A stretch of DNA of 64,000 nucleotides from assembly GCA_040752595.1 (NCBI GenBank), contig JBFMGX010000004.1:155440-219439 (forward strand). Reading direction: 5' to 3'. The notes under the pieces were generated by a model that saw nothing but the letters and a program-made list of their open reading frames with translations, was not told the DNA's origin and ran no database searches. Made by a program: the position numbers and the translations under genes. The stretch is from Candidatus Zixiibacteriota bacterium. Lineage in GTDB: Bacteria; Zixibacteria; MSB-5A5; WJJR01. Positions 11,955 to 55,529 of the stretch are shown in pieces (within the stretch, counting starts at the first letter, position 1; every line of letters begins with the position of its first letter).

Positions 11955-12077
11955 CCGCATTGCGGTGACATAACCGACGGGCAGGGATGCTCGGAGGTGG
12001 GTGGGACCGGAAGATCCGCGACAGATCTTCCGGTCTTTCTCTTTCTGCTCCGACCCTTTCCTCCGGCGGTGGCCCAA

Positions 12078-12250
12078 ACACAGTGAGGGAGAAAGCTCGA
12101 TCCATTCGCAGGACGGCTCGGGAGCCGAACGAGTCAGCAGACACTCCGGCGGAATCAGAACCCTGAGCGGCCTGGAAGAATCTCGTGCCTCGGGAGGGCG
12201 AGGCTCCTGTTCACCCTGAGCGAAGCGTGAGGGCCGAGCCGTCGCGTCTC
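12078..12250. repeat. Degenerate mosaic of repeat modules (gtgagggag, ccctgagcgaagcgtgaggg)
   Basis: Shares the cctgagcgaagcg and gtgaggg modules with families 5 and 6, but lacks the full nested-hairpin structure. Confidence 0.35.
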
Positions 12251-15352: not shown

Positions 15353-15403
15353 TGGATGGCACTTTGTCCGCAACCGGCTAAACCCTCTGCTCAGCGCGAC
15401 GCA

Positions 15404-15508
15404 TACCCTCTCCCTTCGGCATGCCCCGAGCAAAGTCGAGGGGAAGAGGTCGATCCGTCCGCAGGACGGATCGGCTTGCCCTGAGAGAAGTCGAAGGGGT
15501 GGGGGATT
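15404..15508. repeat. Family-5 composite hairpin element (variant), adjacent to the family-6 element
   Basis: ccctctcccttcggcatgccccgagcaaagtcgaggggaagaggtcg + atccgtccgcaggacggatcgg + cttgccctgagagaagtcgaaggggtggggg. Confidence 0.55.
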
Positions 15509-20728: not shown

Positions 20729-21012
20729 GGGCACGGCGTGCCGTGCCCGCATCCGCGATCAAAGATCGCGGGCACACGCATTCGCACGTAGGGCGGGCTC
20801 TGCCCGCCCGCAAGGGGCTGAAGCCCCTTGTCCTCGGTTGTTGCGTCGAATGACGGAAGCCGCGATCAAAGATCGCGGGCACGCGTTCATGTGTCTCGTA
20901 GGGTGGGCTCCGCCCACCTTCCAAAGGGTTGAAGCCCCTTGCCTCAACGCGAACGACGCGCTTCCACTGGGACTTCACATCTCGAGGACAAGGGGTTTCA
21001 AGCCCTTGTTCC
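20725..21012. repeat. Dense cluster of at least 7 REP-like hairpins from families 1, 3 and 4 plus GCGATCaaaGATCGC x2
   Basis: GTAGGGGCACGGCGTGCCGTGCCC (20725-48, overlapping the stop codon); GCGATCAAAGATCGCGGGCAC at 20764 and 20870; GTAGGGCGGGCTCTGCCCGCCC + CAAGGGGCTGAAGCCCCTTG (20788-20830); GTAGGGTGGGCTCCGCCCACC + AAGGGTTGAAGCCCCTT (20898-20940); GACAAGGGGTTTCAAGCCCTTGTTCC (20987-21012). Confidence 0.6.
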
Positions 21013-28959: not shown

Positions 28960-29290
28960 GTAGGAGTCGATCCCAGGTCGACCCGGTACACCGGCGTGGT
29001 AGGGTGGGCTCCGCCCACCGCAGGGGGTTGAAAGCCCCCTGTCCTCAGACGATCACTGTCGGGATCGCGGACAGGGGGTTTTCAACCTCTTGGTTCTTGT
29101 TCGGTAGGGGCGAGGCAGTGTTCACCCGCCTCTGGCGGTCCTCGTCCTTCGTCGGGCGAACAAAGAGGGCGACCCGCCGGGTCGCCCCTACGCGATATCC
29201 CGTAATGCCCTGCCCGGGGTGGCACGCACAAACTCGTTTGTGCGTGCCTCGATCCAGCGACAATTGTAGGGGTCGATCCCAGATCGACCC
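28960..29290. repeat. Divergent-promoter spacer packed with palindromic repeats (family 3/4 copies, two copies of GTAGGnGTCGATCCCAGrTCGACCC, 11-bp hairpin GGCACGCACAAAC/GTTTGTGCGTGCC)
   Basis: GTAGGAGTCGATCCCAGGTCGACCC at 28960-84 and GTAGGGGTCGATCCCAGATCGACCC at 29266-90. GTAGGGTGGGCTCCGCCCACC + CAGGGGGTTGAAAGCCCCCTGTCC at 28999-29044. GACAGGGGGTTTTCAACC at 29070-87. Perfect hairpin at 29221-48. Confidence 0.5.
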
Positions 29291-29651: not shown

Positions 29652-32600
29652 GTGAACGTGCGCTGTCACCGCCATCGAGTCTTCTTGATTGCACTGGCCT
29701 GGATTCTTCGTGCCCTGCCTGCAGCTTCCGCTGGCGGGTATGATGACTGTTCGATTCTCTCCCTCTCCAACTCCAGCATAACGTTTGAGTACCGCCCCGG
29801 CGAACTTGCCTGGCGTACTGGACCTGCCGGAGAATACCCGGCACTGGCCAACGCTGCCCTGAATTCGACCCCCGGGTTTCCCCCAATACAAGGCCGTATC
29901 GTTTATGTCGCGTTGCCGCTTGGCTCCGCCGTTGTCGACGCGCAATTGATCGGTAGCGCTCCGTCAGAGCGGCTCGTTCGCCCCTCCATGTCGCGGGCCG
30001 CGCGCGGGTCGCTCGCCGCAGGGGCCGGTCCGTATCCCGATTCTCCGGTGGCCGTCGACCGGATCTTCACCATGCACGGCGTGCGGATGGCGCGGCTGAT
30101 CCTGCACCCGCTGACCGTGGTGTCGGCATCGGGTGAGGTCGAGTTTCGCCCCTCGTTGACTGTCCAGGTGCGCTTCGATCACGCGGGAGCAGAGACAGCG
30201 ACAGCAACCGTGCCCAATCCCGCGGACCCATTCGACCAGATCCTCGCGAATATCCTCATCAACCCGGAACAGGGGAGACTGTGGCGCTCGACCGACCCCA
30301 TCGACATGTCCCGCGCGGCAATCACCGACACCAATCCCTTCGTCGGCACGGATCAGTGGATTGCGATCCGTACCCGCGAAGAAGGTGTCGTCGCCGTGAC
30401 CGCCGCCGATTTCCGCTCGGGGGGAATCACCCCGGCCACGCTCGATCCGCGCAACTTCCGGCTGTTCGCCGGTTCCGGTCGGCAACTATCGACTTTGATG
30501 TCGTCCGCACCGCCCGGGTTGCGGCAGGTTCCTATCCGTATCATCGGTGAGGCCGATGGCACTTTCGATGAGACCGACTCCCTGCTTTTTTGGGCGCAGG
30601 GGCTCAATCGCTGGGAGCCCGGTGACAATGGCCGGCCGATTGACGTGGTCCACCGCTATGACCGGGACAACGTTTACTGGCTCGCCGCGGCGGGCGATTT
30701 CGCCGGTCCTCCCTTGCGACTGACCGCCACCGCGGCCCCGCCGCTTTCCGCTGCGACGGATCGTTTCGCCGGTACCAGCCGCGCCCGTCATGAAGAGGAC
30801 CACTTCTTCCGCGTCAACACGTTGGGCTACACGGAGAGCTACTACACGTGGTATTGGCGCAACCAGCGCGTCGGCAGCATCGCCCTCGATGCCGTCCATG
30901 ACCCCGTGGCCGGCGCCCCGGCCATGATCGAATTCGGTACCTTCGCCGGGTTCGCCGGGCGCGACCCCGCCCGCCTGGTGACCGGCGGCGTCAACTCCCT
31001 GCCCACGCGCCTGTATCCCGGAACCGGGGAGGACCGAAGCACCATCTCCCAGTTCGATCTGTCCGCCTTTGATCCGGCGGCGACCTTTGTCCTGGCGTTC
31101 GACTCGACTCCGTCGTCGAACTACTACCTCGACTACTATTCGATTGAATATCAACGGCGCCTCGACTGCGCCGATGGCGCGGTTGAGTTCCTGGCCCCCG
31201 ATACGAACGGGACGGTCAACTTCATCCTCGCCAACGCCGCCGATGCCGATGTCTGGGATGTGACCGACCCGGCCGGCCCATTCGCACTCAGCAGTCTGGC
31301 CGTCGACGGCAGCACCACCCGTTTTGGGACGGTGCTGGCGCAAGGTGCGCGCCGCGTCTTCTTTGCCGCCCGGCCGTCGCAGCGGCTGCGGCCGCAGAGT
31401 CTGCAACGGGTTACGACGGTCGACCTGCACACCCCGGCGACCGGCGCCGACTATGTCGCGATCGGCCCGCGCGCGTTCGCCGCGGCCACCGGAGCATTCC
31501 TGGACTATCGTGCCGTTCATGACGGCTTGCGTACGCGCTTTGTCGCGCTGGAGGATGTCTACAACAGCTTCTCCCTCGGCGTCGCCGATCCGGTCGCCAT
31601 CCGGCGCTTCCTGCGGCAGTGCCACTTCGGCTGGCCGTCACCGGCCCCTGTCTATGCGCTCTTGGTCGGTGATGGATCGAATGACTACCTCGACCGCACC
31701 GGGGCGCGCTCGGTCAACTACGTGCCGCCCTACATCGTCCGCGACGACAACGTGGTCTCCGATGAGAGCTATGTGTACTTCTCCGATGCCGCGGTCCTGA
31801 ATGCCGTGCCCAATCCCCAGGACAACCCGTTCCCCGATATGCTGATCGGGCGCTGGCCGGTGCGCACACAGGCGGAGATTGGCGCCGTCACGGCGAAGGT
31901 GCGCCGCTATGAGTCGACGGAGAACCTCGGCCCCTGGCGCTCCCGCATCATGATGGTGGCCGATGACGAATTCGGCGATCGCAATCTGGGGTCTGTCCGC
32001 GAGACCTTTCACATCAACGACGCCGAGCAGATCGCCCGCACGACGATTCCCGGTCGCTTCGATCTGGAGAAGATCTATCTGACAGAATATCCCTTCAACA
32101 ATCCGGGGTGCAACGATCCCAGCGCCCGCGGGTGCACCAAACCGATGGCCAAGGAAGCGATCATCGCCGGCCTCAATGACGGCGTCGCGGTCTTCGACTA
32201 CCTCGGGCACGGCAATCCCGATCTGTTGGCCCATGAACACGTTTTTGAGCGGGTGACCGATCTGCCCCGACTCGTGAATGCCACAACTCCGACTGCGGTG
32301 TTGACCTTCTCTTGCTCCATCGGGCTGTTCGACGACCCTGTGCGGGAGGGAATGTCGGAGGAGTGGTTCCGGATGTCACCCGGCGGGGCCGTAGCCGTGG
32401 TCTCCGCCACCCGGCTGGCCGCGGCGCTGGCCAATGCCGACTTGAACGAAGAGGTGTTCAACCTCCTGTTCACGCGCGGCATTACGGGGATCGGCGCGGC
32501 GGTGTATACCGGCAAGCTGCGCCGGCAGTATTTCGAACCGTCCTGCCGCCTCTTCAGCAACTGCCAGGCGCCGATTTGCCCCTGTCAGAATGATCGCGGC

Positions 32601-33704
32601 TATGTCCTCTTTGGCGATCCGGCGATGCGCTTGGGCATCCCCGATTTGCGTGTGCAATTCGATACCGTGCAGCCCGAGAGTCTGTCGGCTCTTGCGCTGA
32701 CGCGTGTTGCCGGTTGTATCACCGACACCGCCGGAACCCTCCAGTCGGGATTCGACGGTGAGGTCAGCATCATCGCGCGCGACGTCGATCGCCATCGGGT
32801 TCATGCGATCGACGCGACGACGTCGATCGAATACGATCTGGCGGGGGGCACCCTCTATCGCGGCCGCGTGCCGGTCCAGGGGGGACGATTCGCCTTCGGA
32901 TTCATCGTTCCCAAAGACATCGCCTACGGCGAACGGGGAGCGCGCATCATGGGTCACGCGGCCGCGGCCACGCGGATGGCCAACGGCAGTGTCGATTCGC
33001 TCTGGCTCTCCGGCACGGCGATCGCGCCCAGCGACACGTCCGGACCACAGGTGCGTTTGGAAACGACCCGCGGGGAACCGATTGTCGACGGTTTCACGTT
33101 GGCCGAAGGGTCTGGGGTCGTCGTCATGCTCTCCGACCCCTCGGGAATCAACCTCAGCGGCGCGCCGGGGCACCGGCTCCTGGTTACGGTCAACGACGGT
33201 GATCGTCCTTTCGCCGATCTCACCGACGTGTTTACTTACGATCCTGGGGTGTTCGACCGGGGGAGAGCCGACGTGTCTTTGGCGGGACTGGCGAAGGGAT
33301 CTCAACGGCTGACTGTCACCGGTTGGGACAACGCCAACAACTCCACCCGGCACGTGGTCGATGTCACGATCAGTAGCGCCGGGAGCGCCGACGAGTTCCG
33401 CGTGACTGAGTTCCTCAACTACCCCAATCCGTTCTCCGAACGGACGACGTTCTATTTTCGCGCCACGCGCGAAGTCCGCAGGGCGAAAATCCGGATTTTC
33501 ACGGTCGCCGGCCGCCTCATCTGGGAGACGGGGTCGGCCCGCGACGGCGAGGTCGAATGGAACGGCAGGGATGCGGCCGGTGATCCGGTCGGCAACGGCG
33601 TCTATCTGGCCCAACTGGAAGTCACCGGGCAACTGGTGTCATCGCAGGGAAAAGTGGTCGATAAGAGGGCATACAGAGAGGCCAAGTTGGTAGTATCACG
33701 GTGA
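29652..33704 (+). CDS. porU: PorU-like T9SS C-terminal signal peptidase (gingipain-type peptidase C25) with a C-terminal T9SS/FlgD-Ig-like sorting domain
   Basis: GTG start with signal peptide (VFLIALAWILRALPAASA). C25 catalytic region with His (VFDYLGHGNPDLLAHEH) and Cys (AVLTFSCSIGLFDD) motifs. C-terminal FLNYPNPFSERTTFYF...KIRIFTVAGRLIWE...GVYLAQLEV matches the T9SS CTD. Size (1350 aa) and adjacency to a PorV-like gene fit the porU-porV arrangement known from Bacteroidetes. Confidence 0.75.
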   Translation: MNVRCHRHRVFLIALAWILRALPAASAGGYDDCSILSLSNSSITFEYRPGELAWRTGPAGEYPALANAALNSTPGFPPIQGRIVYVALPLGSAVVDAQLIGSAPSERLVRPSMSRAARGSLAAGAGPYPDSPVAVDRIFTMHGVRMARLILHPLTVVSASGEVEFRPSLTVQVRFDHAGAETATATVPNPADPFDQILANILINPEQGRLWRSTDPIDMSRAAITDTNPFVGTDQWIAIRTREEGVVAVTAADFRSGGITPATLDPRNFRLFAGSGRQLSTLMSSAPPGLRQVPIRIIGEADGTFDETDSLLFWAQGLNRWEPGDNGRPIDVVHRYDRDNVYWLAAAGDFAGPPLRLTATAAPPLSAATDRFAGTSRARHEEDHFFRVNTLGYTESYYTWYWRNQRVGSIALDAVHDPVAGAPAMIEFGTFAGFAGRDPARLVTGGVNSLPTRLYPGTGEDRSTISQFDLSAFDPAATFVLAFDSTPSSNYYLDYYSIEYQRRLDCADGAVEFLAPDTNGTVNFILANAADADVWDVTDPAGPFALSSLAVDGSTTRFGTVLAQGARRVFFAARPSQRLRPQSLQRVTTVDLHTPATGADYVAIGPRAFAAATGAFLDYRAVHDGLRTRFVALEDVYNSFSLGVADPVAIRRFLRQCHFGWPSPAPVYALLVGDGSNDYLDRTGARSVNYVPPYIVRDDNVVSDESYVYFSDAAVLNAVPNPQDNPFPDMLIGRWPVRTQAEIGAVTAKVRRYESTENLGPWRSRIMMVADDEFGDRNLGSVRETFHINDAEQIARTTIPGRFDLEKIYLTEYPFNNPGCNDPSARGCTKPMAKEAIIAGLNDGVAVFDYLGHGNPDLLAHEHVFERVTDLPRLVNATTPTAVLTFSCSIGLFDDPVREGMSEEWFRMSPGGAVAVVSATRLAAALANADLNEEVFNLLFTRGITGIGAAVYTGKLRRQYFEPSCRLFSNCQAPICPCQNDRGYVLFGDPAMRLGIPDLRVQFDTVQPESLSALALTRVAGCITDTAGTLQSGFDGEVSIIARDVDRHRVHAIDATTSIEYDLAGGTLYRGRVPVQGGRFAFGFIVPKDIAYGERGARIMGHAAAATRMANGSVDSLWLSGTAIAPSDTSGPQVRLETTRGEPIVDGFTLAEGSGVVVMLSDPSGINLSGAPGHRLLVTVNDGDRPFADLTDVFTYDPGVFDRGRADVSLAGLAKGSQRLTVTGWDNANNSTRHVVDVTISSAGSADEFRVTEFLNYPNPFSERTTFYFRATREVRRAKIRIFTVAGRLIWETGSARDGEVEWNGRDAAGDPVGNGVYLAQLEVTGQLVSSQGKVVDKRAYREAKLVVSR

Positions 33705-33851
33705 AGGCCGATCCCGGCGGTTCCCGGCGAGAGTACCACGGAGCACCATATGAAGATCAGGAAGCATGCTCACATAAACGAGAACGGTCGCAGGCTGTCC
33801 CATGGGACACACGTCGGCGGATCGGTGGAAGGGGTACGACAGATGCAACGC

Positions 33852-36479
33852 ATGAAAACCGCGCTGGCGATGCTGATCGCACTGGCGCTGCTATGGCCGG
33901 CAACGACGGCGCGGGCCCAGGTGAACGCCGGTGTGCTGTTCTTGCGCATCGCGCCGGGAGCCCGTGCCGCGGGGATCGGGGAATCGTTCGTGGCGATGGC
34001 CAATGACGCGACGGCCACGCACTGGAACCCCGCCGGGCTGGGAACATATCCCCTCAACACCGAGTGGAGCGAGTATCCGCTCGCGCCGTCCGGCCAGGTG
34101 CTGGACGCCGTGCCGCTCAAGAATGGACTGCCCTACGACAACTTCACCGGGTATGACCTTTGGATCTTGACCGATTCCGGCCTGACAGTCTTCCATCCGT
34201 CGAGGGCCGCACAGCAAGTTAAGTCGGCCGCCGCGACCGGTTTCACCGCTCCCAGGGGCAACACGTTGGAGTTGTCGACCGACGGTGTCAGTTCCGTTTC
34301 GGCGGCCATCCTCCGCTACGCCCCCTTCATGACTGAGGACGAGGCGGAGACGATCGCCCGTCGATCGGCCGCCGGCGAAGTCGGCATTCCCCTCGCGGAG
34401 CTGGAACCGATGCTGGCACGCATCGGCGGGGCCATGCCGGAAGGGTACCGGGATCGCACGACGCTCGAAAACGTGATTCGTGAATTCAGGACGGCGTTTC
34501 TCGAGGGGAGAGTCGGGACCGATCGCCTCCCGGAGCTCCGCACTGCGATGGCGGCGTTGCCGGAGTCCGGTCCGGCCGACTTGTCCTTGTTGGATCGCAT
34601 CCGCTTCACGATGGAGCGCAGCGTGTCGTTGGTCCTGCCTCACACCATTCCCGTCCAGTTGAATGACCTGATCCGCCCCCCGGTACAGGCCATTGCATCC
34701 GATGGTAGCACGATCTATGTCGCCGCCAGCAACGGCCTCCTGCAATTCAACGGGGAACGCTGGGAAGTCGTGCCGCCGCCCGATGGGATCGATTGGAGGA
34801 CGACCCGGATCAATTGTCTGGCGGCCGCCGGCGGAAGACGTCTCTGGGTCGGCACTGACAGCGGCCTGTTGGCCCGGAGCTCCGGCCAATGGGAGACGAT
34901 CGGTTCCGATCGGGGGCTTCCCGATCCGCGTGTGCTGAAGATCACTCTCGCCGGATCTCGCGCCGGGTGGGTTCTCACCAACGCGGGGTTGGCCGCTTAT
35001 GACGGGAAGATGTTCTCCAGCACTGCGTCCGTGACCGCCAATGTCGGCGATTCGCTCCGCTCCGTCGTGGAGCGCTTCTTGGATACCGACGATGCGGTTG
35101 TGATCGGCCGTGCGTTGGAAGCCGTGCGTTCCGCCGGCGACATCCCCGCCGATACCGCGCCACTGGCCGGGAAGACCATTGCCATCCCCTATTCCCTGGG
35201 AATTCGTGGGGACGTGACCGGCATGGAACTCGACGCGTACGATCGCCTGTGGGTCGGGACGACGGTCGGGACATTCCGCTTCGGCAAGGGCCGATGGACC
35301 TCATTCGGATACGAGGCAGTTTTGGTCGAAGAGGCGACCACGGCCGAAGCGCTCGCCGAGTCCCGTCTCGGCAAGCGGGCAACACCGGAGAGAGTCCAGC
35401 GCCTCGCGGAATATGTCAAACTCTACAACAATCTGCCCGACGGCCAGATTCCCGCCGGTCGGACCGTGTACGTGTACCGCAACCCGGCCGGGGCGCACAT
35501 CCTCGACATGGCTGCCGCGGGCGATCAAATGCTGATCGCCACCGAGGTGGGACAACTGGAAGTCTCGTCCGGCCAGTGGAGCCGCTACTTTCATGGCGAG
35601 CTGGAACAGGATCAAGTACATGCGATCGTGGCCGAGGGCGGCGACGTGTGGTTTGTCACCGACAATCGCGTCGTCGTCTACCAGCATCCCCACAAAGAGA
35701 TCAGCTTCATGCATGTCAACTGGCTCCCCGAATTCAATCTCGACTTGTACTATGAGTACCTGACCTACGTCGCCAACATCGAGGGAATCGGCACGGTCGG
35801 CGCGGCGATCACGTTTCTTTCATACGGCGAAATCATCCGCACCGATGAACTCGGCAACGTCGGCAATCCCTTCCATTCCTTCGACGGCGCATTGTCCCTG
35901 TCCTATGGAACGCGCCTCAATCCCAATCTGGCCGCCGGTCTGTCGGCGAAGATCATCTACTCCCGTTTGGCCGATCAGGGCGCGGGAGCGGAGATCGGCT
36001 CGGGCAGCGCCACCGCCTTTGCCATGGACGCCGGTCTTCTCTATCGGACGCCGTGGCGACGGCTGACGCTCGGCGCCGCGCTCACCAACGTGGGGCCCAA
36101 CATCTCCTATATTGACGCCCAGCAGTCCGACCCATTGCCGCGCAACCTCGCGCTCGGCTTCGCCTACCGCATATGGGATTCGCCGTACAACCGGCTGACC
36201 ATCATTGGCGAGGCCAACAAGGAGCTTGTCGACCTGACCAGCAGCACCTCTGAGGAAGTGAAGCAGACCGTGTTCAACGGCGGCGCCGAGTACTGGTATG
36301 GATCGTTTGTGGCGCTGCGCGGCGGGTATATTTACGATCAGGACGGGGAAATCAAGACGGCGACGCTCGGCGCCGGTCTGTCGTACCAGCGCTTCGAGAT
36401 GGATGTCGCCTATATCCCCTCCAACAAAGACCTGCCGCTGGCCAACACGCTGCGTGTGAGCATGACGGGACGCTTTTGA
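33852..36479 (+). CDS. PorV/FadL-like outer-membrane beta-barrel carrying a large inserted two-component-regulator-propeller (Reg_prop-like) domain
   Basis: Signal peptide MKTALAMLIALALLWPATTARAQ. N-terminal barrel motif ARAAGIGESFVAMANDATATHWNPAGLG. C-terminal barrel strands ending ...NTLRVSMTGRF (terminal aromatic residue). The middle about 450 aa has repeated GxLxxFxGxxW-type motifs (IYVAASNGLLQFNGERWEVV, RLWVGTDSGLLARSSGQWETIG, WVLTNAGLAAYDGKMF, RLWVGTTVGTFRFGKGRWTSFG). Confidence 0.55.
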   Translation: MKTALAMLIALALLWPATTARAQVNAGVLFLRIAPGARAAGIGESFVAMANDATATHWNPAGLGTYPLNTEWSEYPLAPSGQVLDAVPLKNGLPYDNFTGYDLWILTDSGLTVFHPSRAAQQVKSAAATGFTAPRGNTLELSTDGVSSVSAAILRYAPFMTEDEAETIARRSAAGEVGIPLAELEPMLARIGGAMPEGYRDRTTLENVIREFRTAFLEGRVGTDRLPELRTAMAALPESGPADLSLLDRIRFTMERSVSLVLPHTIPVQLNDLIRPPVQAIASDGSTIYVAASNGLLQFNGERWEVVPPPDGIDWRTTRINCLAAAGGRRLWVGTDSGLLARSSGQWETIGSDRGLPDPRVLKITLAGSRAGWVLTNAGLAAYDGKMFSSTASVTANVGDSLRSVVERFLDTDDAVVIGRALEAVRSAGDIPADTAPLAGKTIAIPYSLGIRGDVTGMELDAYDRLWVGTTVGTFRFGKGRWTSFGYEAVLVEEATTAEALAESRLGKRATPERVQRLAEYVKLYNNLPDGQIPAGRTVYVYRNPAGAHILDMAAAGDQMLIATEVGQLEVSSGQWSRYFHGELEQDQVHAIVAEGGDVWFVTDNRVVVYQHPHKEISFMHVNWLPEFNLDLYYEYLTYVANIEGIGTVGAAITFLSYGEIIRTDELGNVGNPFHSFDGALSLSYGTRLNPNLAAGLSAKIIYSRLADQGAGAEIGSGSATAFAMDAGLLYRTPWRRLTLGAALTNVGPNISYIDAQQSDPLPRNLALGFAYRIWDSPYNRLTIIGEANKELVDLTSSTSEEVKQTVFNGGAEYWYGSFVALRGGYIYDQDGEIKTATLGAGLSYQRFEMDVAYIPSNKDLPLANTLRVSMTGRF

Positions 36480-36541
36480 AGACAGCAGGGATCATGGGAC
36501 CGCGCGCCCGGCTCATGTGCATTCCGCTGGTGAGGGCAGTG

Positions 36542-36645
36542 TTAACCTCTCCCACCGGCACTGTCCCGAACAGAGTGAGGGAGAGAGGTCGATACGCCAT
36601 AGGCGGATCGGCTTGCACTGAGCGAAGTCGAAGTGGTGAGGGGGA
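36542..36645. repeat. Family-5 composite hairpin element in the leader of the M6 peptidase gene
   Basis: ttaaCCTCTCCCaccggcactgtcccgaacagagtGAGGGAGAGAGGtcg + atacgccataggcggatcgg + cttgcactgagcgaagtcgaagtggtgaggggg. Confidence 0.6.
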
Positions 36646-36670
36646 AGCCCCGTTTCAAGTGGGACCAGCG

Positions 36671-39600
36671 ATGTGGCAGTATTCGCGAAATCTTCTGCTT
36701 CTTGCCGTCGCGGCAATATGGCCATCCTGCCCCCATGCGGCGGCAACCTGGAATACGGCGGCGCACGTCGTCCACTTGGACCGTGGTGCCTTGGTGATCG
36801 ACACGACGATGCGCGCCGAATCTTCATCGCGCCGTTGCTTTTGCCCGGTGCCGTCGGAGCGCAATCTCCTCGGGCTCCGGCGGGACACACCGGTTTCTTC
36901 CGGGCGGCTGGCAGCCGGGATGCCGGCACAGGAACCGACGGTGCTGCGGGTCGTCGCGATTCGCGTCGAGTTCCCGTTGGAATCTCCCGATGATCCGCTG
37001 ACCACCGGCACCGGGCGATTCGACCGCCGCGATACGATCGCCTATCGGGATTCGAACGGTCACTCCTTCGACAGCGCGCCGCACACCAAGCGCTACTTCG
37101 AGGCGCATCTGCGAGCGCTCAATGCCTACTGGAACACCGTGTCCAACGATCATCTGCGTCTGGAATGGGCGGTGTTTCCCGAGGATTCCGACGCGGCGTA
37201 TCAGTTGCCGAACCCGATGTCCCACTACGGTCGCACGCGAGGGGACGACTCCGGCGTGGTTTGGGGACTGCAGCAGTTCGTGATAGACGCCGCCGAAGCT
37301 GCCGCTGCCGATCCTGACTTGCATTTCCCCGACTATGATGCCGTGATCATCTTCCACGCCGGCGCCGATCGGCAGACTGACATCGCGGATGACACACCGC
37401 ATGATCTCTTCTCGGCATTTCTCCGACTGGACAAACCATACATCAGCCGTCCCCCCGGAGGCATGGCACAGCCGATCCTGTTGCGTGCCGGGGCGGATAC
37501 GCTGAGCGAAGCGATCATCATGCCCGAAACGATGATCCAGGACGGCCGCATCAGTGTGCTCAATGCCGTACTCGCGCACGAGTTCGGTCATCAGTTGGGA
37601 CTGGTCGACTTGTACAACACCTACAACGGTGCCACGTGTGTCGGCAATTTCTCCCTGATGGACAACAACGCCGCCGATGTCGGCATCGAGGCCGAAGTCG
37701 ATGGGAGAGCGCGCATCATCTTCGGCGCGCTGCCGGTTCTGCCTGATCCTTGGTCTCGTGCCTACCTCGGATTTGTTGACGTGGCGACCGTCACCGATTC
37801 CAGCAATGTCCCCGTCTGGGCGGCCGAAGATCTGGAAGTCGTCCCGTCCAATCGTCAGGTCTGGCGCGTGCCCATCTCGCAGAGCGAGTACTATCTGCTG
37901 GAGAACCGCCTGTACGATCTCGACGGCGATGAAGCCGCGGGGCTGCGCCTCGACTCGGCAACCAACGTTGTCCTTGGCCCTGCCGACACGGCGCTGATCC
38001 CCGGTGTCCCGCCGCAGTTGACGCGGGAATACGATTTCCTTCTCCCCGGCAACGGGCTGCTGATCTGGCATGTCGATGAGGGGGTGGCGGCGCTCGATTA
38101 CGTGACCGCTGATGATGCGCCCGACAACTTCCTCGCCAACACACTACAATGGGATGACAACCGACGCTTCGTGCGCGTGATCGAAGCGGACGGACTCTCG
38201 CAGCTCGGCGCCCCGGGGATCTTCCGTTACTATACGGGCAGTGCAGGAGACTACTATTACCGCCCGCACAACATGGAGCTCAGTCCCACCACGATCCCCC
38301 CGGCCAAGAGCTACACCGGCGGGTACACCGGCGTCCGCATCAGCAACATCTCCGTGCCCGGAAGAACCATGCTCTTCCATGTAACGACGGCCGGCACGCT
38401 TCCCGGATTCCCGATCTACGTCGGTAACCAATCCGGCGACGTCGGCGCGCCGATTATCACCGACATCAAGCGCTCCGTGGCCGGCGATTGGCGCACTCCC
38501 GGCGATGGTCGGCCCGAGGTCTTTCTCGGTTATGAAAATTACATCCTCGCCTATGCTTGGGATGGCGCGTCGCTCGCGGGCATCCAAGTCCAGGATTCAA
38601 CTCTCGGCTTCGACACGACCGCTACGTTGAAGTCACTTCGCGCCGTCGCTGTCGGCAACCCCGACGACGGCGGGTGGGTATCGGCGCCGCTCATCTACAA
38701 TGTCCCCGATCAGTTTAGCACGCTCGTTGCCGTTTCCCGCGCCGGGCGCGTCTACGCCTGGCGGATGCAGGATGCTGACGGAGACAGTCTGTTCGATACG
38801 CTCTTCGTACGCCGGGCCGTCGGAGCCCCCAGCGGTCCGCCGATCATCTGGGACCGCCCCGGTAGCACATCGTTGAAGGACTTGTATCTCCCGATCAACG
38901 GCGCCTTCTACAATCTGTTTCATCTCGACGACGGTGTCCGGGAGATCAACGTCGCTCCCGGCGTGATCCGCAGCACCGCGGGAACAGGTCCGCAAAACGC
39001 GATGATGGTCTTCAACCTCGACGGCTCCTGGTTCGTGTCGCGGTTCGACGGTGAACAACGGGTCGCAATGGGGAGCGACTCACTCATGACACCTGCGCTC
39101 GGCGACGTCGACCATGATGGTCGGCTTGACTACGCTGTCGTCACGGCGGCCGGGCGGTTGTGGGTCCTGGATTCCACCTTGAATGTCGCGTCGGACTTCC
39201 CCGTTGAAATGGGATTCACCCCTTCGTCGGCCCCGGTTCTCGCCGACGTCGACCGCGATGGATACCTCGACATTGTGGTCGCCGGCGAAGGCATGCTCCA
39301 TGCCTATGCACGAAACGGCACGCCTCTTTCCAATTTCCCGATCACGATCGGCCGCAGCAATGAGCCGGATTCGCTCGCACCGGCCGCCGCCATCATTGAT
39401 ATGGGCAACACCCAGAGTCTGGCGTTGCTGACCGGCGGAGCCAGTCGCGCCATCTATGGCTGGGATAAGCAGGGCGAACGACTGGCACAGATGCCGCGTC
39501 CGGTCGGGTCTGCGCTGACTGCTCCGGTCGCTTGGGCGCTCAACAGCGACGAGGCCACAGCGGCCATCTTCGCGCGTGCCGCGGACGGGTATCTCTATGC

Positions 39601-40009
39601 CTTCAACCTTCCCGTTCCTGCGACCGAGGCTGCTCGTGCCATCTGGCCGATGGCGGGGCGTGATCCCCGACACACTGCCACGGTACCGACTGATGAACTG
39701 GAACCGCTGGTCACGCCGACTCAGTTCTTCGTCAGCGAACGTGCCTATGTCTATCCCAATCCGGCCAGCGACCGCGCGATTGTACGCTATTGGCTCGGCG
39801 ATGATGCCACAGTCAGCATCCGCATCTATGACTTGGCCGGCAATCTCATCACCGAGGCAGATGGTCCCGGCGTCGGCGGTGTCTACAACGAGTGGACTTG
39901 GTCTTGCGCCCAGGCGGCATCGGGAGTTTACTTCGCGCGGCTGGAAGTGACCCGGCGCGCGGGCGGACAGACGGAGACGGCATTCTGCAAATTGGCGGTG
40001 GTGCAATGA
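36671..40009 (+). CDS. M6 (immune inhibitor A-like) zinc metallopeptidase with FG-GAP repeats and a C-terminal T9SS sorting domain
   Basis: ATG at 36671 with signal peptide (LLLLAVAAIWPSCPHAAA). HEFGHQLGLVDLYN zinc-binding motif, as in InhA/M6. FG-GAP-type repeats (LGDVDHDGRLDYAVVT, LADVDRDGYLDIVVAG). C-terminal CTD: YVYPNPASDRAIVRYWL...IRIYDLAGNLI...GVYFARLEV. Confidence 0.8.
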   Translation: MWQYSRNLLLLAVAAIWPSCPHAAATWNTAAHVVHLDRGALVIDTTMRAESSSRRCFCPVPSERNLLGLRRDTPVSSGRLAAGMPAQEPTVLRVVAIRVEFPLESPDDPLTTGTGRFDRRDTIAYRDSNGHSFDSAPHTKRYFEAHLRALNAYWNTVSNDHLRLEWAVFPEDSDAAYQLPNPMSHYGRTRGDDSGVVWGLQQFVIDAAEAAAADPDLHFPDYDAVIIFHAGADRQTDIADDTPHDLFSAFLRLDKPYISRPPGGMAQPILLRAGADTLSEAIIMPETMIQDGRISVLNAVLAHEFGHQLGLVDLYNTYNGATCVGNFSLMDNNAADVGIEAEVDGRARIIFGALPVLPDPWSRAYLGFVDVATVTDSSNVPVWAAEDLEVVPSNRQVWRVPISQSEYYLLENRLYDLDGDEAAGLRLDSATNVVLGPADTALIPGVPPQLTREYDFLLPGNGLLIWHVDEGVAALDYVTADDAPDNFLANTLQWDDNRRFVRVIEADGLSQLGAPGIFRYYTGSAGDYYYRPHNMELSPTTIPPAKSYTGGYTGVRISNISVPGRTMLFHVTTAGTLPGFPIYVGNQSGDVGAPIITDIKRSVAGDWRTPGDGRPEVFLGYENYILAYAWDGASLAGIQVQDSTLGFDTTATLKSLRAVAVGNPDDGGWVSAPLIYNVPDQFSTLVAVSRAGRVYAWRMQDADGDSLFDTLFVRRAVGAPSGPPIIWDRPGSTSLKDLYLPINGAFYNLFHLDDGVREINVAPGVIRSTAGTGPQNAMMVFNLDGSWFVSRFDGEQRVAMGSDSLMTPALGDVDHDGRLDYAVVTAAGRLWVLDSTLNVASDFPVEMGFTPSSAPVLADVDRDGYLDIVVAGEGMLHAYARNGTPLSNFPITIGRSNEPDSLAPAAAIIDMGNTQSLALLTGGASRAIYGWDKQGERLAQMPRPVGSALTAPVAWALNSDEATAAIFARAADGYLYAFNLPVPATEAARAIWPMAGRDPRHTATVPTDELEPLVTPTQFFVSERAYVYPNPASDRAIVRYWLGDDATVSIRIYDLAGNLITEADGPGVGGVYNEWTWSCAQAASGVYFARLEVTRRAGGQTETAFCKLAVVQ

Positions 40010-40053
40010 CCCTGTATATCCATCGGGCCACGGCCCCCCACCTTCGACCCCCT

Positions 40054-40667
40054 GTAGGGGCACGGCGTGCCGTGCCCGCTCATGGTGCGCGGTGAACACC
40101 AATCACACATTGCCTCATCGCCGCTCCGTGCGCATAGCCGGGTACGACTACACACGCGCAGGGGCGTATTTCGTCACGATTTGTACACGCGATCGCGCCT
40201 GTATCTTGGGCGATGTCGTGGATGGGACCGTGCATTTGAATCCCCTTGGGTGCGCCGCTCGTCACGAATGGATGGTGATACCGACACACCATCCGCAGGT
40301 TGTGCTGGATGTGTTCGTGGTCATGCCCAACCACGTGCACGGGATCATCATTCTCTCCCATCCGTCGGGCACGGCACGCCGTGCCCCTACAGAGGAACGA
40401 TTCGCACGTCCCGTTGCGGGCTCACTGCCGACCATCGTACGCGCCTTCAAATCGGCATCGACCCGATCGATCAACCTCCTGCGCCGCACACCCGGAGCCG
40501 CCGTCTGGCAACGCAATTACTACGAACACGTAATACGCAACGAAGACGAACTGCTCCGTGCGCGAGAATACATCGTGAACAACCCTCTGCGATGGTCCCT
40601 GGATCGCGATAACCCAGACGTCATCGCCCCACGTGCATTATCTGTAGGGCTGCGGCCTGCCGTGCCC
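40054..40667 (+). mobile_element. REP-RAYT unit: REP-associated tyrosine transposase gene bracketed by its cognate REP (family 1) copies
   Basis: REP GTAGGGGCACGGCGTGCCGTGCCC at 40054-77 (forward), 40367-90 (reverse complement, inside the ORF) and 40644-67 (forward, degenerate, overlapping the 3-prime end of the ORF). Unlinked copies at 20725 and 42000. Confidence 0.7.
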
Positions 40668-40673
40668 TCATGA
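40092..40673 (+). CDS. REP-associated tyrosine transposase (RAYT; IS200/IS605-like Y1 HUH transposase)
   Basis: YDYTRAGAYFVTICTRDR N-terminal motif; HUH motif VVMPNHVHGII; catalytic-Tyr region AVWQRNYYEHVIRNEDELLRAREYIVNNPLRW. GTG start at 40092. Confidence 0.8.
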   Translation: MNTNHTLPHRRSVRIAGYDYTRAGAYFVTICTRDRACILGDVVDGTVHLNPLGCAARHEWMVIPTHHPQVVLDVFVVMPNHVHGIIILSHPSGTARRAPTEERFARPVAGSLPTIVRAFKSASTRSINLLRRTPGAAVWQRNYYEHVIRNEDELLRAREYIVNNPLRWSLDRDNPDVIAPRALSVGLRPAVPS

Positions 40674-40683
40674 AGGAGGACGT

Positions 40684-41688
40684 GTGAAACCGGATCGACA
40701 TGCACGAATCTGGATCGTAATGACGGTCGTGGCAGCCGCCTTGACAATCACCACCAAGGCCGCCTGTGCCACCGGCTCGCTTGAGACCACGGATCTCGCG
40801 CTTGAGCGCGCGACTTGGCAACAACCGATCCTCCTCTCGATGACGGCGACATCCGAGCCTGCTGCGCCGCTGTTGGCCCAGGCCACCGGCGATGAGCCGG
40901 TCGATGTCTATGGCTTCAAGAAGAAAAGCCCGCGGCGCGCCTTCCTGCAGTCGTTCCTCATTCCCGGTTGGGGCCAGTGGTACAACGGCTCGCGCATCAA
41001 GCCGTTTCTCTTTCTCGGGCTGGAGGCGGCGGGATGGTACGGGGTGTCCCATTTCCACAGCAAGGGAGTGGACAGGGAGGACGAATACGTGGCGTACGCC
41101 GACGCGCACTGGGACAGTACGAGGTATTTTGCCGGCCTGCGCCGCGTCTTCTATCCGACCGAGCAATTTCCTCCCGACTATGACCAGCGGCTGATGGACA
41201 CCCGGATCTACACGTACATCGATGATACCGACTCGCTGCGAAGCAAGACCTTCTCCCACCACGCGTATTTTAAGGACACGCTCGGTACCGTGAAAGTCCC
41301 AAAGGGCGAGTACTACGAGAACGTCGGCAAGTACAGCCAGTTCAACTTCGGATGGGATGACTACCGATACACGGTCGACAGCGTCTCGCCCACCCCCGAC
41401 AGCCTCCCGACCGGACCCACCGACACCGCGCGCTTCAATCTCATCTCGGCCAACCGCCGCCACTATCTGAAGCTGCGTGACGACGCCAACAAGGAATACA
41501 AACGCGCCTCGACGATGCTGGTCGCCACCATCGCGAATCACCTTCTGTCGGCATTTGAAGCTGCGATTGGAGCGCGACGCTACAACCGGGCCCAGGACCG
41601 ATTCGGCACCGTGGACCACCAGATTCGTCTGGTCCGTGGCTCCGATGGCAAGCTCATGCCGCGCGTTACCGTGGCGTATCGATTCTGA
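40684..41688 (+). CDS. Secreted hypothetical protein with a LIPGWGQWYNG motif (possibly DUF5683-like); first of two tandem paralogs
   Basis: RBS gaaggagga precedes the GTG at 40684. Signal peptide MKPDRHARIWIVMTVVAAALTITTKAACA. Paralog 41824..42683 shares LIPGWGQWYNG / LILPGAGQWYAG and a downstream block. Confidence 0.55.
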   Translation: MKPDRHARIWIVMTVVAAALTITTKAACATGSLETTDLALERATWQQPILLSMTATSEPAAPLLAQATGDEPVDVYGFKKKSPRRAFLQSFLIPGWGQWYNGSRIKPFLFLGLEAAGWYGVSHFHSKGVDREDEYVAYADAHWDSTRYFAGLRRVFYPTEQFPPDYDQRLMDTRIYTYIDDTDSLRSKTFSHHAYFKDTLGTVKVPKGEYYENVGKYSQFNFGWDDYRYTVDSVSPTPDSLPTGPTDTARFNLISANRRHYLKLRDDANKEYKRASTMLVATIANHLLSAFEAAIGARRYNRAQDRFGTVDHQIRLVRGSDGKLMPRVTVAYRF

Positions 41689-41735
41689 CAGCCGTGAGAT
41701 CGAGAGCATCACACATGGTCGACGTCGGACGAGCA

Positions 41736-41816
41736 CTAACCTCTCCCTCCGGCCTGCCCCGAGCGAAGTCGAGGGGGAGAGGTCCATCCGTCCGGAGGAC
41801 GGATCGGGTGAGGGAG
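41736..41816. repeat. Family-5 composite hairpin element
   Basis: ctaaCCTCTCCCTCcggcctgccccgagcgaagtcGAGGGGGAGAGGtcc + atccgtccggaggacggatcgg + gtgagggag. Confidence 0.6.
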
Positions 41817-41823
41817 ATATTAA

Positions 41824-42683
41824 GTGTGCTTGTCCCGGTACTGGCTCTCGTAGTATGCTCCTCTGCGACATGTCGGGCCGATCAACAGCCGGCCTTGCCC
41901 GTTCCAGACACGACAGGGCTTGTAGGGTGCGTGCTCAGCACGCACCGTCAGGGGGCTGGAAACCCTCTGTCCGCAATCGATAACGATCCGCTGGCAATCG
42001 TAGGGGCACGCCCTGCCGTGCCCGTCTTCTCCCCGGTAAGCGCGCTCGCTCGACCACGCACGGAACGCGACAGTGAGTTCGGCACCGAAGACCGGGACAA
42101 GGTCAACGTGACACGCGCCGTGGCGTATTCGCTCATACTCCCCGGCGCCGGGCAGTGGTATGCCGGTGCCAAGGGCCGTGCCGGCGTCTTCCTCGTCGGC
42201 GAAGCTGCGACGTGGACTCTGTTTGGGTACTTCCGTACTGTCAGCAGCATCAAAGAAGACAGCTATCAGTCCTACGCTCGTGTTCATGCCGGAATCGACC
42301 CAGCCGGTAAGAGCGTTGATTTCTATCGCCTGATCACCTTCTATGAATCGCGGGATGAATACAATGAATACGGTCGCCTCTTGGCACCGGGGCGACCATA
42401 CTACCCGGATAGCCCGGTCTGGGACTGGCAATGGGATTCCCAGGCGGCGATGCGACGCTATCGCACCCTCCGCAATCAGAAAAGCGAGGCCGACAATCGC
42501 GCTCGCTTCACGCTCGGTGCCGCTGTCGTCGACCGACTGATCGCCGCCATCGACGCCTGGCGGACCGCCCGGTCGGCCAATCGCCGTGCGCGCATGGAGA
42601 CGTCACAGTGGAAGGTGCACCTGAAAGGCGTTCCCAGTCTGGATCACCCGGCATTCGGACTGGTTCTTTCCCGGCAATTCTGA
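41824..42683 (+). CDS. Second GWGQWY-motif paralog (secreted hypothetical)
   Basis: Start tentatively the GTG at 41824 (VLVPVLALVVCSSATC signal-like segment). The ORF-track start at 41694 runs through the repeat. Contains an in-frame REP-1 copy at 42000-42023 coding AIVGARPAVP. Confidence 0.5.
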
Positions 42684-42760
42684 CCAACACCACCGATGGG
42701 TGGATCGGTGGTCTGCCCCGACGCTCTGCACCGTGTTGGCGTCGACTTGGCACACTCTCG

Positions 42761-43720
42761 GTGATACTGCTGATGCTCGGCTGTGCCGGGTCTTCGTCGT
42801 TCGTGACACCGCAGGTGACGCCGACCTCCGAGTTGCTTGTCATTTCAATCATCGACCGCGACTACCTCGAACGTCTATCGAACCGTATACCGGGGACAGC
42901 GACACCGGTTTCCACAGAAGCGTTCGAGCCCCTGTCGATGGCATTGTCCGGCGACGATGCACTGGTAATCGCCGACCCCGCTGGTGGCCGACTCTGGTCA
43001 CTGGCCGGACCGGGCGGCGGTGACGGTCGGCTGCGACCGCTGCTGGCGGCGGGTATCACGCCGCATCCGCCTGGTTTTGTGCGCATGGACCGTCTGGGAA
43101 ATGTCTTTGTCACCGGCGTCGAGACCGGGGCGGTCACGATCTGTGATCCGCGGCTCCACCCGGTCGGCAGTATCGCGGCGCCGTACGGGGCGCTTGGCTT
43201 GGTCATCGGCCGACCGGTCGGGATCGCCTTTGGTCTCCAGGGGGAATGCTACGTTTCGGATCAGACGAATGCCTTGGTGCATCATTTCGATGCCGCCGGT
43301 GGTTTCGTGGCATCCTTCGGCGGTCCCGATGCCGGTTGGGGACGAGTGCTGCGCCCCGAGGGCCTCGACTGCTCGCCCGACGGCAACGAAATCTACGTTT
43401 GTGATCCCGGCACAAGACGCGTTCTCGTGTATGATCCCGCTGGCGTGCCGTTGCGCGAGATCGGCGGCACCGACCTGATCGAGCCGCGGAGCGTCGCTGT
43501 GGACCGCCGCGGCCAGTGTTTTGTCGCCGATCCGGGAGCGAAGGCCGTGATGGTGTTTGCCGCTAACGGTCGTTGGATCCGGACCCTGACCGGACTGCCC
43601 CCTGCCATCGAGCGTTTCAGCGCGCCGTGCGACGTCGCGGTGGTGGATTCGGTGATCTGGATTGCCGACGCCTCGGCCGGGAAGATCGTCGCGGTCACTC
43701 TCCGGCCTCCGCATCCGTGA
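42761..43720 (+). CDS. NHL-repeat beta-propeller lipoprotein
   Basis: Lipobox VILLMLGCAGS. NHL-type repeats: GNVFVTGVETGAVTICDP, GECYVSDQTNALVHHFDAAG, NEIYVCDPGTRRVLVYDPAG, GQCFVADPGAKAVMVFAANG, DSVIWIADASAGKIVAV. Start uncertain (GTG 42761 or ATG 42773). Confidence 0.6.
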   Translation: MILLMLGCAGSSSFVTPQVTPTSELLVISIIDRDYLERLSNRIPGTATPVSTEAFEPLSMALSGDDALVIADPAGGRLWSLAGPGGGDGRLRPLLAAGITPHPPGFVRMDRLGNVFVTGVETGAVTICDPRLHPVGSIAAPYGALGLVIGRPVGIAFGLQGECYVSDQTNALVHHFDAAGGFVASFGGPDAGWGRVLRPEGLDCSPDGNEIYVCDPGTRRVLVYDPAGVPLREIGGTDLIEPRSVAVDRRGQCFVADPGAKAVMVFAANGRWIRTLTGLPPAIERFSAPCDVAVVDSVIWIADASAGKIVAVTLRPPHP

Positions 43721-43820
43721 GATTCGGATGAAGCGGCAAGATCGATAACCCTCCCACGGCATGGACGCACAGGTTCACAGCCTCACAACGACACTTTCCC
43801 TTCAACGGAGAGTGGGACCG

Positions 43821-43890
43821 ATAACCTCTCCCTCCGGCACTGTCCCGAACAGCGTGAGGGAGAGAGGTCGCTTGGACCGGAGGTCCAGGC
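43821..43890. repeat. Family-5 composite hairpin element
   Basis: ataaCCTCTCCCTCcggcactgtcccgaacagcgtGAGGGAGAGAGGtcg + cttggaccggaggtccaggc + gggtgaggga. Confidence 0.6.
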
Positions 43891-43925
43891 GGGTGAGGGA
43901 TCTCCCTCGTCGCCTCATTCCGCTG

Positions 43926-48858: not shown

Positions 48859-48923
48859 CATTGCCTGAATTCACGCGGTCTGGGCGGCATCCACAAGACG
48901 CTGGCTTGGTCGCCCGCGCCATG

Positions 48924-49022
48924 ATAACCTCTCCCTCCGGCTTGCCCCGAGCGTACTCGAGGGGGAGAGGTCGATCCCTGCCTGCCGGCAGGCACGGCGC
49001 CGAAGGCGGATCGGGTGAGGGA
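48924..49022. repeat. Family-5 composite hairpin element
   Basis: ataaCCTCTCCCTCcggcttgccccgagcgtactcGAGGGGGAGAGGtcg + atccctgcctgccggcaggcacggcgccgaaggcggatcgg + gtgaggga. Confidence 0.6.
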
Positions 49023-49066
49023 TTCCTTCGCACGTCAACTCAGTTCGAGGCAGGAATCCCGACATC

Positions 49067-54210: not shown

Positions 54211-54308
54211 ACCCTCACCCCAACCCTCTCCCTGAAATGGAGAGGGGGAAGTGATCACCTCTCCCTCCGGGAGAGGTCGATCCGCCGCAGGCGGATCGGG
54301 TGAGGGAA
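54211..54308. repeat. Family-5 nested-hairpin element (short-loop variant with outer CCCTCACC/GGTGAGGG arms)
   Basis: aCCCTCACCccaaCCCTCTCCCtgaaatGGAGAGGGggaagtgatcaCCTCTCCCtccGGGAGAGGtcg + atccgccgcaggcggatcgg + GTGAGGGaa. Confidence 0.6.
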
Positions 54309-54360
54309 TGGGAGCGGACGAGCCAGTGAGCGACCGAATGCCGAACAAGCAGGGAAGCAC

Positions 54361-55383: not shown

Positions 55384-55482
55384 CACCCTCACCCCAGCCC
55401 TCTCCCTGAAAGGGAGAGGGGGTGAGATAACCTCTCCCTCCGGGAGAGGTCGATCCGCCGGAGGCGGATCGGGTGAGGGAGT
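55384..55482. repeat. Family-5 nested-hairpin element (near-identical to 54211-54308)
   Basis: cCCTCACCccagCCCTCTCCCtgaaaGGGAGAGGGggtgagataaCCTCTCCCtccGGGAGAGGtcg + atccgccggaggcggatcgg + GTGAGGGag. Confidence 0.6.
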
Positions 55483-55529
55483 TCTTCCTCTGTCTGTTCC
55501 AACCCAAGCAGACTGAGACGGATTGCACG

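Follow-up and report, generated by a model that had tools for sequence, protein, structure and literature searches.

Our results show that a transposase gene in a 64-kb stretch of DNA (the window) from a Candidatus Zixiibacteriota metagenome-assembled genome is bounded by copies of one palindrome and carries another copy inside its own reading frame. The palindrome is a 24-mer, GTAGGGGCACGGCGTGCCGTGCCC, a repetitive extragenic palindrome (REP) that we name REP-1, and the gene encodes a REP-associated tyrosine transposase (RAYT, or TnpA_REP). We consider it very likely, with a probability of about 0.9, that this Candidatus Zixiibacteriota genome carries here a REPtron of subclass 2.4 of TnpA_REP, which corresponds to the RAYT group 4 of Bertels et al. 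(2017). The elements concerned are the following.

40054–40077 (+): 5′ flanking REP-1, exact; GTAG foot and a GC-rich stem of 8–9 bp, ending 14 nt before the GTG start of the RAYT gene; z −2.9
40092–40673 (+): RAYT/TnpA_REP gene, 193 aa; HUH-Y1 type (histidine-hydrophobic residue-histidine motif and one tyrosine), HVH at residues 81–83 and YY at 143–144
40367–40390 (−): internal REP-1, reverse complement, identical to the 5′ copy at 24 of 24 positions; codes for SGTARRAPT in the loop from the HUH strand to the following helix
40644–40667 (+): 3′ flanking REP-1 with 4 mismatches; codes for the last RAYT residues, VGLRPAVP
20725–20748 (+): dispersed REP-1, exact; first element of a mosaic cluster (20725–20930) that continues with other hairpins
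42000–42023 (+): REP-1 variant with 2 mismatches, both in the loop region; in-frame linker, codes for VGARPAVP

A pattern scan of the window returned the three exact copies at 20725, 40054 and 40367 and, when up to two mismatches were allowed, the copy at 42000. These 4 matches compare with 0.00 expected from 100 dinucleotide shuffles. The fifth copy, at 40644, has the degenerate sequence GTAGGGCTGCGGCCTGCCGTGCCC; it was recovered with a looser pattern and also as family D8 in the repeat finding. The positions and strands given in the initial annotation, which had been made from the letters alone, are thus borne out by the scan. All five copies fold as GTAG-footed hairpins in single-stranded DNA, with energies of −10.2 kcal/mol for the three perfect copies (z about −2.7 to −2.95), −8.2 kcal/mol for the 42000 copy and −6.4 kcal/mol for the 40644 copy (z −1.5). 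The REP-1 hairpin consists of the GTAG foot and the stem GGGCACGG..CCGTGCCC, with three G-C pairs at its base.

Several of these copies are part of coding sequences. Residues 92–100 of the RAYT (SGTARRAPT) are the in-frame reading of the internal copy, and the 3′ copy reads in the RAYT frame as VGLRPAVP-S-stop, which forms the C-terminal end of the open reading frame (ORF). At 20725, the TAG stop of the ORF 18197–20728 is the TAG within the GTAG foot. On reading the sequence, what the initial annotation had said about frames held for these three copies as well as for the copy at 42000.

The identity of the transposase is supported by motifs, profiles and fold. The ORF 40092–40673, whose product is 100% identical to its NCBI record, carries an intact HUH motif (HVHGII) and an intact tyrosine motif (WQRNYYEH, residues 139–146), and the corresponding columns are invariant or nearly so in alignment A1, which holds 35 homologues from many phyla. 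A profile built from the RAYT and 34 homologues had a single sequence match in the PDB, the E. coli TnpA_REP structure 4ER8 (E 4.8e-6). The same structure was the top Foldseek match in the PDB (E 1.3e-7, TM 0.55/0.63) of the AlphaFold model, which has a pLDDT of 83.9 and a pTM of 0.80. The best 30 Foldseek matches are all TnpA_REP or IS200/IS605 TnpA, with the IS200/IS605 proteins at ranks 2–30, and the model thus shows the RRM-like TnpA fold. In total 7942 RAYT homologues were found, many of them named RayT by their sources. In the model, a loop at residues 89–111 lies between the strand 81–88 and the helix 112–131, with a pLDDT below 50 at residues 97–103, and both the alignment and the located gene copies show that the loop after the HUH motif differs in length among homologues. 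The window holds one RAYT gene; a second was not found there. Since the gene is bounded by copies of a single palindrome family at 40054 and 40644, with the internal copy at 40367, the proposal of the initial annotation that this ORF is a RAYT with cognate REPs on both sides agrees with the copies, the profiles and the fold match alike.

Several points weigh against this interpretation. The NCBIfam model REP_Tyr_transpos (NF047646) scored 66.9 bits (E 1.7e-18, residues 21–168) and missed its cut-off of 80, and Pfam Y1_Tnp (PF01797) scored 19.7 bits, below its cut-off of 23, with only profile positions 63–121 matched. These sub-threshold scores are likely due to the variable loop, which splits the domain; a precomputed PF01797 match is present in many close homologues. 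Outside the REPtron, the 64 kb contain only two REP-1 copies, at 20725 and 42000, and a large dispersed REP-1 family is more than these two copies demonstrate. Nor does the window contain inverted doublets of REP-1, the arrangement known from bacterial interspersed mosaic elements (BIMEs) that the initial annotation had suggested looking for. The copies at 20725 and 42000 are single and adjoin other hairpin types in the same orientation; the sole inverted pair is formed by 40054 (+) and 40367 (−), whose starts are 313 nt apart with 289 nt between the copies, and which spans half of the gene. Furthermore, GTAG-footed perfect hairpins with stems of at least 6 bp number 14 in the window, against 1.35 expected, and fall into at least five stem families, at least four of which are other than REP-1 and are without a nearby transposase. 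Finally, activity data for subclass 2.4 enzymes were not found in the literature.

The embedded palindrome is common to the relatives of the window gene. We took 80 homologous loci from reference genomes and located 84 gene copies, from 81 sources, by tblastn anchors. These replaced strict regular expressions, which had recovered only 15 genes when applied to the two anchors in the protein. In each gene, the longest perfect inverted repeat was measured in the segment from the HUH codons to the next conserved helix, and upstream and downstream segments of equal length from the same genes served as controls, together with shuffles. The mean stem was 10.7 bp in the post-HUH segment, compared to 5.1 bp in the upstream control, 4.9 bp in the downstream control and 4.9 bp in the shuffles. 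Stems of at least 7 bp were present in the post-HUH segment of 71 of the 84 genes, but in only 8/84 upstream and 4/84 downstream segments (they were not counted in the shuffles). A GTAG-footed palindrome thus occupies the post-HUH site in 71/84 homologous genes, an occupancy of ~85% that describes the 80 closest genomic relatives rather than the whole subclass; in the other 13 the palindrome is lacking and the ORF is still intact. The commonest form is a perfect 28-nt palindrome, GTAGGGGC-N12-GCCCCTAC. Among the 71 palindromes, 34 are double-footed (GTAG...CTAC), 42 are perfect and free of a loop, and the stem reaches 14 bp or more in 34. The single-footed copies show no bias in orientation (14 versus 14). 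Tandem or multiple internal copies occur in L011, L020, L024, P0042, P0047 and P0099.

These counts alter part of what had been proposed for the site. The initial annotation had asked whether SGTARRAPT is an insertion, and a private insertion of eight residues is ruled out by a site that is occupied in 71/84 homologues: the segment is not peculiar to the window gene. Its argument that 24 nt equal eight codons, and would therefore leave the frame undisturbed, fails as a general rule, because the usual form is the 28-nt palindrome.

An explanation at the level of the protein would be that the 24-mer and its likeness to a REP are a by-product of the motif GTARRAPT, with no meaning for the DNA. 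At first sight the protein alignment lends itself to this idea. The A1 consensus at the site is DGRGTAxRAPT, with variants GTACRAPT, GTLQRAPT and VGARHAVPLQ, and P99 is invariant in all 35 sequences. Yet the internal copy is identical to the flanking copy at 24/24 positions, synonymous ones included, and homologues read the palindrome in another frame as VGARHAVPL. In 30 genes the GTAG is translated in frame 0 as Val-Gly (GTA-GGG), and in 18 it is translated in frame 1 as Arg-Gly (xGT-AGG), which gives VGAxxxxPL in one frame and RGxxxxAPT in the other; the frame that would turn TAG into a stop is never used among the 71 palindromes. Peptide variants (ARR, ACR, LQR, GSRT...) always change in such a way that the DNA stays palindromic, and the segment is predicted to be disordered. 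We therefore regard a pure protein motif as almost certainly wrong. The two-frame reading of one palindrome argues that the palindrome DNA, not the peptide, is the conserved object, and conservation of the residues at the site follows from that of the palindrome. This frame switching and the compensatory changes in the stems rule out a mere chance resemblance to conserved residues. Hence, the coincidence with conserved residues that the initial annotation had named as a possible refutation does exist, but the chance similarity that it presumed does not, since the palindrome itself is conserved at the DNA level.

The internal palindrome also matches the flanks of the gene. Its lineage-specific 20-nt core recurs elsewhere in the locus, with up to 2 mismatches, in 49 of 70 cases; most of these further copies lie ~290–460 nt from the HUH codons in either direction, just beyond the ends of the gene. 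Because so many loci repeat the core, the order REP, 5′ half of the gene, REP, 3′ half of the gene, REP is a general architecture. In addition, each stem type pairs with one sequence of the following helix: across loci L001–L080, GCGGTTCGCGAACCGC goes with RKPLGRLIGAFKT, GCGCACGGCCGTGCGC with SLGSFVAGFKS, GCACGGC.. with GSLPTIIRSFKS, and GCGTAT..ATACGC with TIGAIIRGFK. This pairing may mark a specificity determinant, or may reflect shared ancestry alone.

Three loci hold more than the usual arrangement. L062 (9376–11100, a Deferrisomatales metagenome-assembled genome) contains 28 copies of the internal palindrome core GGGCGACGCATGCGTCGCCC; the 14 positions listed flank the gene on both sides within ~1.1 kb of its HUH codons and form a dense REP array with spacings of mostly ~70–135 nt. 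Two RAYT genes within ~1.5 kb of each other occur in both L053 (10001–11800), where they share the same internal palindrome, and L069 (9486–10288), where the palindromes are GCGGTTCGCGAACCGC and GCGCACGGCCGTGCGC, each with the matching helix type.

The conservation of the palindrome might be explained by selection rather than by tolerance. The internal copy could be an ancestral cis-element, acting as a self-limiting operator or hairpin, or as a protected master copy by which the specificities of enzyme and repeat would stay coupled. Such an element would have co-diversified with the following helix as a possible specificity determinant, and a master copy would seed the REPs of the genome. Consistent with this, 71/84 homologues have the palindrome at the same place, and these 71 palindromes include 42 perfect ones without a loop and 34 with a stem of 14 bp or longer. 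The 16-nt palindrome centre is identical in 38 genome pairs in which identity across the RAYT coding DNA is only 58% (43% for third codon positions), though this comparison is partly circular because the pairs were picked for their identical centre. Each stem type goes with one type of following helix, and stem identity is tracked by the DNA of that helix (0.68 versus 0.51) more than by the HUH block (0.58 versus 0.52). However, the same pattern is expected if the enzymes keep re-inserting or gene-converting their own conserved REP into a permissive loop, and the link between stem and helix is confounded by shared ancestry. The tandem and multiple copies look like ongoing insertion, 13/84 genes are intact without a palindrome, and the orientation of the single-footed copies is unbiased. 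We therefore treat both forms of this explanation, the selected operator or master copy and the co-diversified specificity element, as tentative possibilities that are less probable than tolerated insertion.

Tolerated insertion is also how the phenomenon has been described before. Quentin et al. (2018; BMC Genomics 19:475, PMC6006769) defined subclass 2.4 of TnpA_REP by in-frame REP insertions between the HUH and tyrosine motifs, accompanied by canonical long or 'double foot' REPs, and their Table S1 holds the exact GTAGGGGCACGGCGTGCCGTGCCC for a subclass 2.4 REPtron. In their model, the embedded REP extends the periphery of the protein and is unlikely to affect its activity much. The embedded in-frame REP was thus already described in 2018, and the window locus is an ordinary example of it: a textbook-type REPtron in an uncultured Zixibacteria genome, of value chiefly for annotation. 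Our comparison puts numbers on the published remark, namely the ~85% occupancy, the two frames, the match with the flanking stems and the pairing of stem and helix. If the embedded copy is functional, it would offer a direct handle on the long-term matching of a domesticated transposase and its repeat population. Our literature searches on REPs inside RAYT genes returned Quentin et al. (2018) only. Such REPs are unmentioned in Nunvar et al. (2010) and Corneloup et al. (2021), and no later study testing the function of the embedded REP was found.

The window locus resembles subclass 2.4 in its HUH-Y1 core with a variable insertion between β3 and αC, in the in-frame REP between the HUH and tyrosine motifs (40367–40390), in its flanking REPs, which have the GTAG foot and whose stems begin with three G-C pairs, and in a distribution scattered across phyla; its model agrees with Quentin et al. 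in the location of the loop. It differs in that the internal copy is single-footed with a 2-nt loop, whereas relatives commonly have the double-footed 28-mer. The host here belongs to the phylum Zixibacteria, and the placement follows from these features and the REP listing rather than from the BLAST/MCL clustering and profiles of Quentin et al.

The E. coli TnpA_REP (RayT, YafM, 4ER8; subclass 2.2) is the best match in sequence and fold, and shares the HUH and tyrosine motifs, the WQ..Y.EH block, a GTAG-footed cognate REP and a gene flanked by REPs. In contrast, identity is only ~20%, the E. coli protein lacks the loop insertion after HUH as well as an intragenic REP, and E. coli REPs, unlike REP-1 of the window, have longer, bulged stems and form BIMEs. 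IS200/IS605 TnpA proteins (IS608, ISDra2) have the same fold and chemistry and recognise subterminal hairpins in single-stranded DNA, but they are obligate dimers that move a whole element. In the window, the flanking copies are direct repeats instead of distinct left and right ends, and only short hairpins appear dispersed, without a second copy of the gene. REPs within genes are known from elsewhere too. Di Nocera et al. (2013; PMC3733652) reported REPs inside ORFs, often near N-termini, and REPs close to the 3′ ends of ORFs. Like the Rickettsia palindromic elements, these intragenic REPs are in frame, add ~8–30 residues, often in linkers or at N-termini, and some overlap ORF ends. Di Nocera et al. 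put the emphasis on DNA-repair genes, while the decorated gene of the window encodes a DUF5683 protein in a type IX secretion neighbourhood, and its linker differs from their cases in having two different GTAG hairpins ~50 nt apart.

By homology with the E. coli TnpA_REP (PMC3479197), we infer that the enzyme is active: it would bind the GTAG-footed hairpin in single-stranded DNA, and would cut and rejoin the REP strand at or near the foot through a phosphotyrosine intermediate. This cutting and rejoining could spread short REP hairpins around the chromosome, and the copies described here would be products of this enzyme. Cognate copies are placed directly ahead of the start codon and across the final codons of the gene, as is typical of the subclass. 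Once translated, the in-frame copy after the HUH motif would form a disordered loop at the surface which the fold can accommodate, probably with a neutral effect on function. Of the other copies, the one at 20725 would have landed by a stop codon, and the one at 42000 in the poorly conserved linker of a DUF5683 protein that is secreted. Within coding sites, only length changes that preserve the frame would be expected to survive.

The gene order around the RAYT is conserved, which provides a view on the history of the site. Four Zixibacteria loci (L081, L084, L085 and L086) keep the order PorV, M6 peptidase, DUF5683, DUF5683, NHL, and a transposase is absent from the RAYT site in 4/4 of them, where the gaps are 37–96 nt. 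In the closest relative, L081, one REP (GTACGGGCACGGCGTGCCGTGCCC) stands exactly at the position of the 3′ REP of the window, directly before the same tcatgaaggaggacg-GTG; the window copy at 40644–40667 is thus orthologous to this solitary REP (L081: 8925–8952), whose foot is GTAC, not GTAG. The more distant L084 has only a 12-nt remnant, CGTGCCCTCATG (4990–5010). The remnants in L081 and L084 look like stages of decay of a REP or REPtron, or of its gain.

The absence of the transposase from all four syntenic loci and their short gaps would suit a RAYT that moved in with its flanking REPs as an autonomous unit of the IS200 type, as opposed to a resident, vertically inherited REPtron. We consider such a move unlikely. 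L081 already has a single REP exactly where the 3′ REP of the window stands, and L084 retains its remnant. The REPs on either side of the gene form direct repeats, and recombination between them, with loss of the gene, would explain L081 equally well. Quentin et al. (2018; PMC6006769) also report that REPtrons do not move as units. Two histories fit the sequences: the RAYT may have been inserted beside an existing REP, or may have been lost through recombination between the flanking REPs.

The surrounding segment, 29652–43720, is a conserved Zixibacteria block that resembles a type IX secretion neighbourhood. Its M6 peptidase bears a Por_Secre_tail, and PorV, the two DUF5683 proteins and the NHL-repeat protein are present in all four loci; a C25 peptidase was seen only in L081 and, judged by size, in the window. 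Three features of this block adjoin the REPtron.

40684–41688 (+): DUF5683 gene 1, Pfam DUF5683 at 28.6 bits; no REP inside; syntenic in L081 and L084–L086
41826–42683 (+): DUF5683 gene 2, with a proposed GTG start at 41826 after a GAGGGAG ribosome-binding site
41922–41946 (+): another GTAG-footed hairpin, GTAGGGTGCGTGCTCAGCACGCACC; in-frame linker of DUF5683 gene 2, codes for VGCVLSTH

The second DUF5683 gene is a case of REPs within another coding sequence, provided that its start is placed correctly. The deposited NCBI annotation (AB1792_01195, P0121) starts at the GTG at 42018, inside the REP, and gives a protein of 221 aa without a signal peptide. If that start were right, the REPs would be non-coding and lie in the 5′ untranslated region, and Di Nocera et al. 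(2013; PMC3733652) indeed noted that many REPs seemingly at ORF N-termini are actually extragenic. We think this quite improbable, and the true start is likely the GTG at 41826. The reading frame is open from there and is preceded by the GAGGGAG site, and the resulting N-terminus, LVPVLALVVCSSATCRAD, aligns with the signal peptide VLALAAGHATVCRAD of the orthologue P0122. A start at 42018 would drop a signal peptide that is common to all orthologues. In BLASTP, the alignment with P0122 begins at residue 5 of the window protein and takes in VLAL..CRAD from the signal peptide, and other orthologues of 266–277 aa align over 96–100% of the query. All 18 gap positions relative to P0122 fall in the REP-bearing linker, which is 18 residues longer in the window, and a 4-residue gap of the orthologue falls at the 41922–41946 hairpin.

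The open frame, the ribosome-binding site, the aligned signal peptide and the gaps in the linker together indicate that REP-1 at 42000–42023 and the hairpin at 41922–41946 are truly in-frame coding sequence, so that the NCBI start probably falls within a REP and leaves the annotated protein without its signal peptide. The claim that REPs stand in frame inside coding sequences is thereby upheld for DUF5683 gene 2 as well as for the RAYT, and the ortholog alignment that had been proposed as a check shows the signal peptide conserved upstream of the REP and the extra length in the linker. This linker, judged from the alignments, is poorly conserved. The orthologue of L081 has no REP at the position of the 42000 copy; the nucleotide alignment of the linker with L081 was too diverged for clean 24-nt indels, and the protein alignment was used. 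Another hairpin lies at about 41949–41970; together with the one at 41922 it gives a folding energy of −16 kcal/mol (z −2.9).

The gap between the two DUF5683 genes is filled by a repeat of a different kind.

41734–41822 (+): unrelated two-hairpin repeat, CCTCTCCC..GGGAGAGG, then TCCGTCC..GGACGGA and the tail GGGTGAGGGAG; families D1, D2 and D6

This repeat is absent in L081, L084 and L085, where the gap measures 17, −1 and 0 nt, respectively. The family, with a length of ~70–110 nt, recurs at 1070–1178, 12048–12121, 15401–15474, 36540–36596, 43815–43923, 48922–49029, 54245–54314 and 55418–55487. Its copies usually lie just upstream of long plus-strand ORFs or over their mechanical 5′ ends, and repeat sequence accounts for several of the mechanical extensions of ORFs in the window. 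Since the copies mostly precede long plus-strand ORFs, the tail GGGTGAGGGAG could act as a ribosome-binding site.

The GTAG hairpins other than REP-1 are found at 9263, 20788, 20898, 28960, 28999, 29104, 29167 (−), 29266 and 41922, with stems such as GGTGGGCTCCGCCCACC, GGGCGACCCGGCGGGTCGCCC and GGGTCGATCCCAGATCGACCC. Two mosaic clusters, at 20725–20930 and 28960–29290, consist of GTAG-footed REPs that alternate with small hairpins (GCGATCAAAGATCGC; ACAAGGGGCTTCAGCCCCTTGT). They have mostly one orientation, and are BIME-like but without inverted doublets of the same family. RAYTs of the unrelated genomes L020 and L037 have as their internal palindrome the stem GGGCGACCCGCCGGGTCGCC, which is one loop base off the window hairpin at 29167, and the internal palindrome of the RAYT in L076 matches that hairpin exactly.

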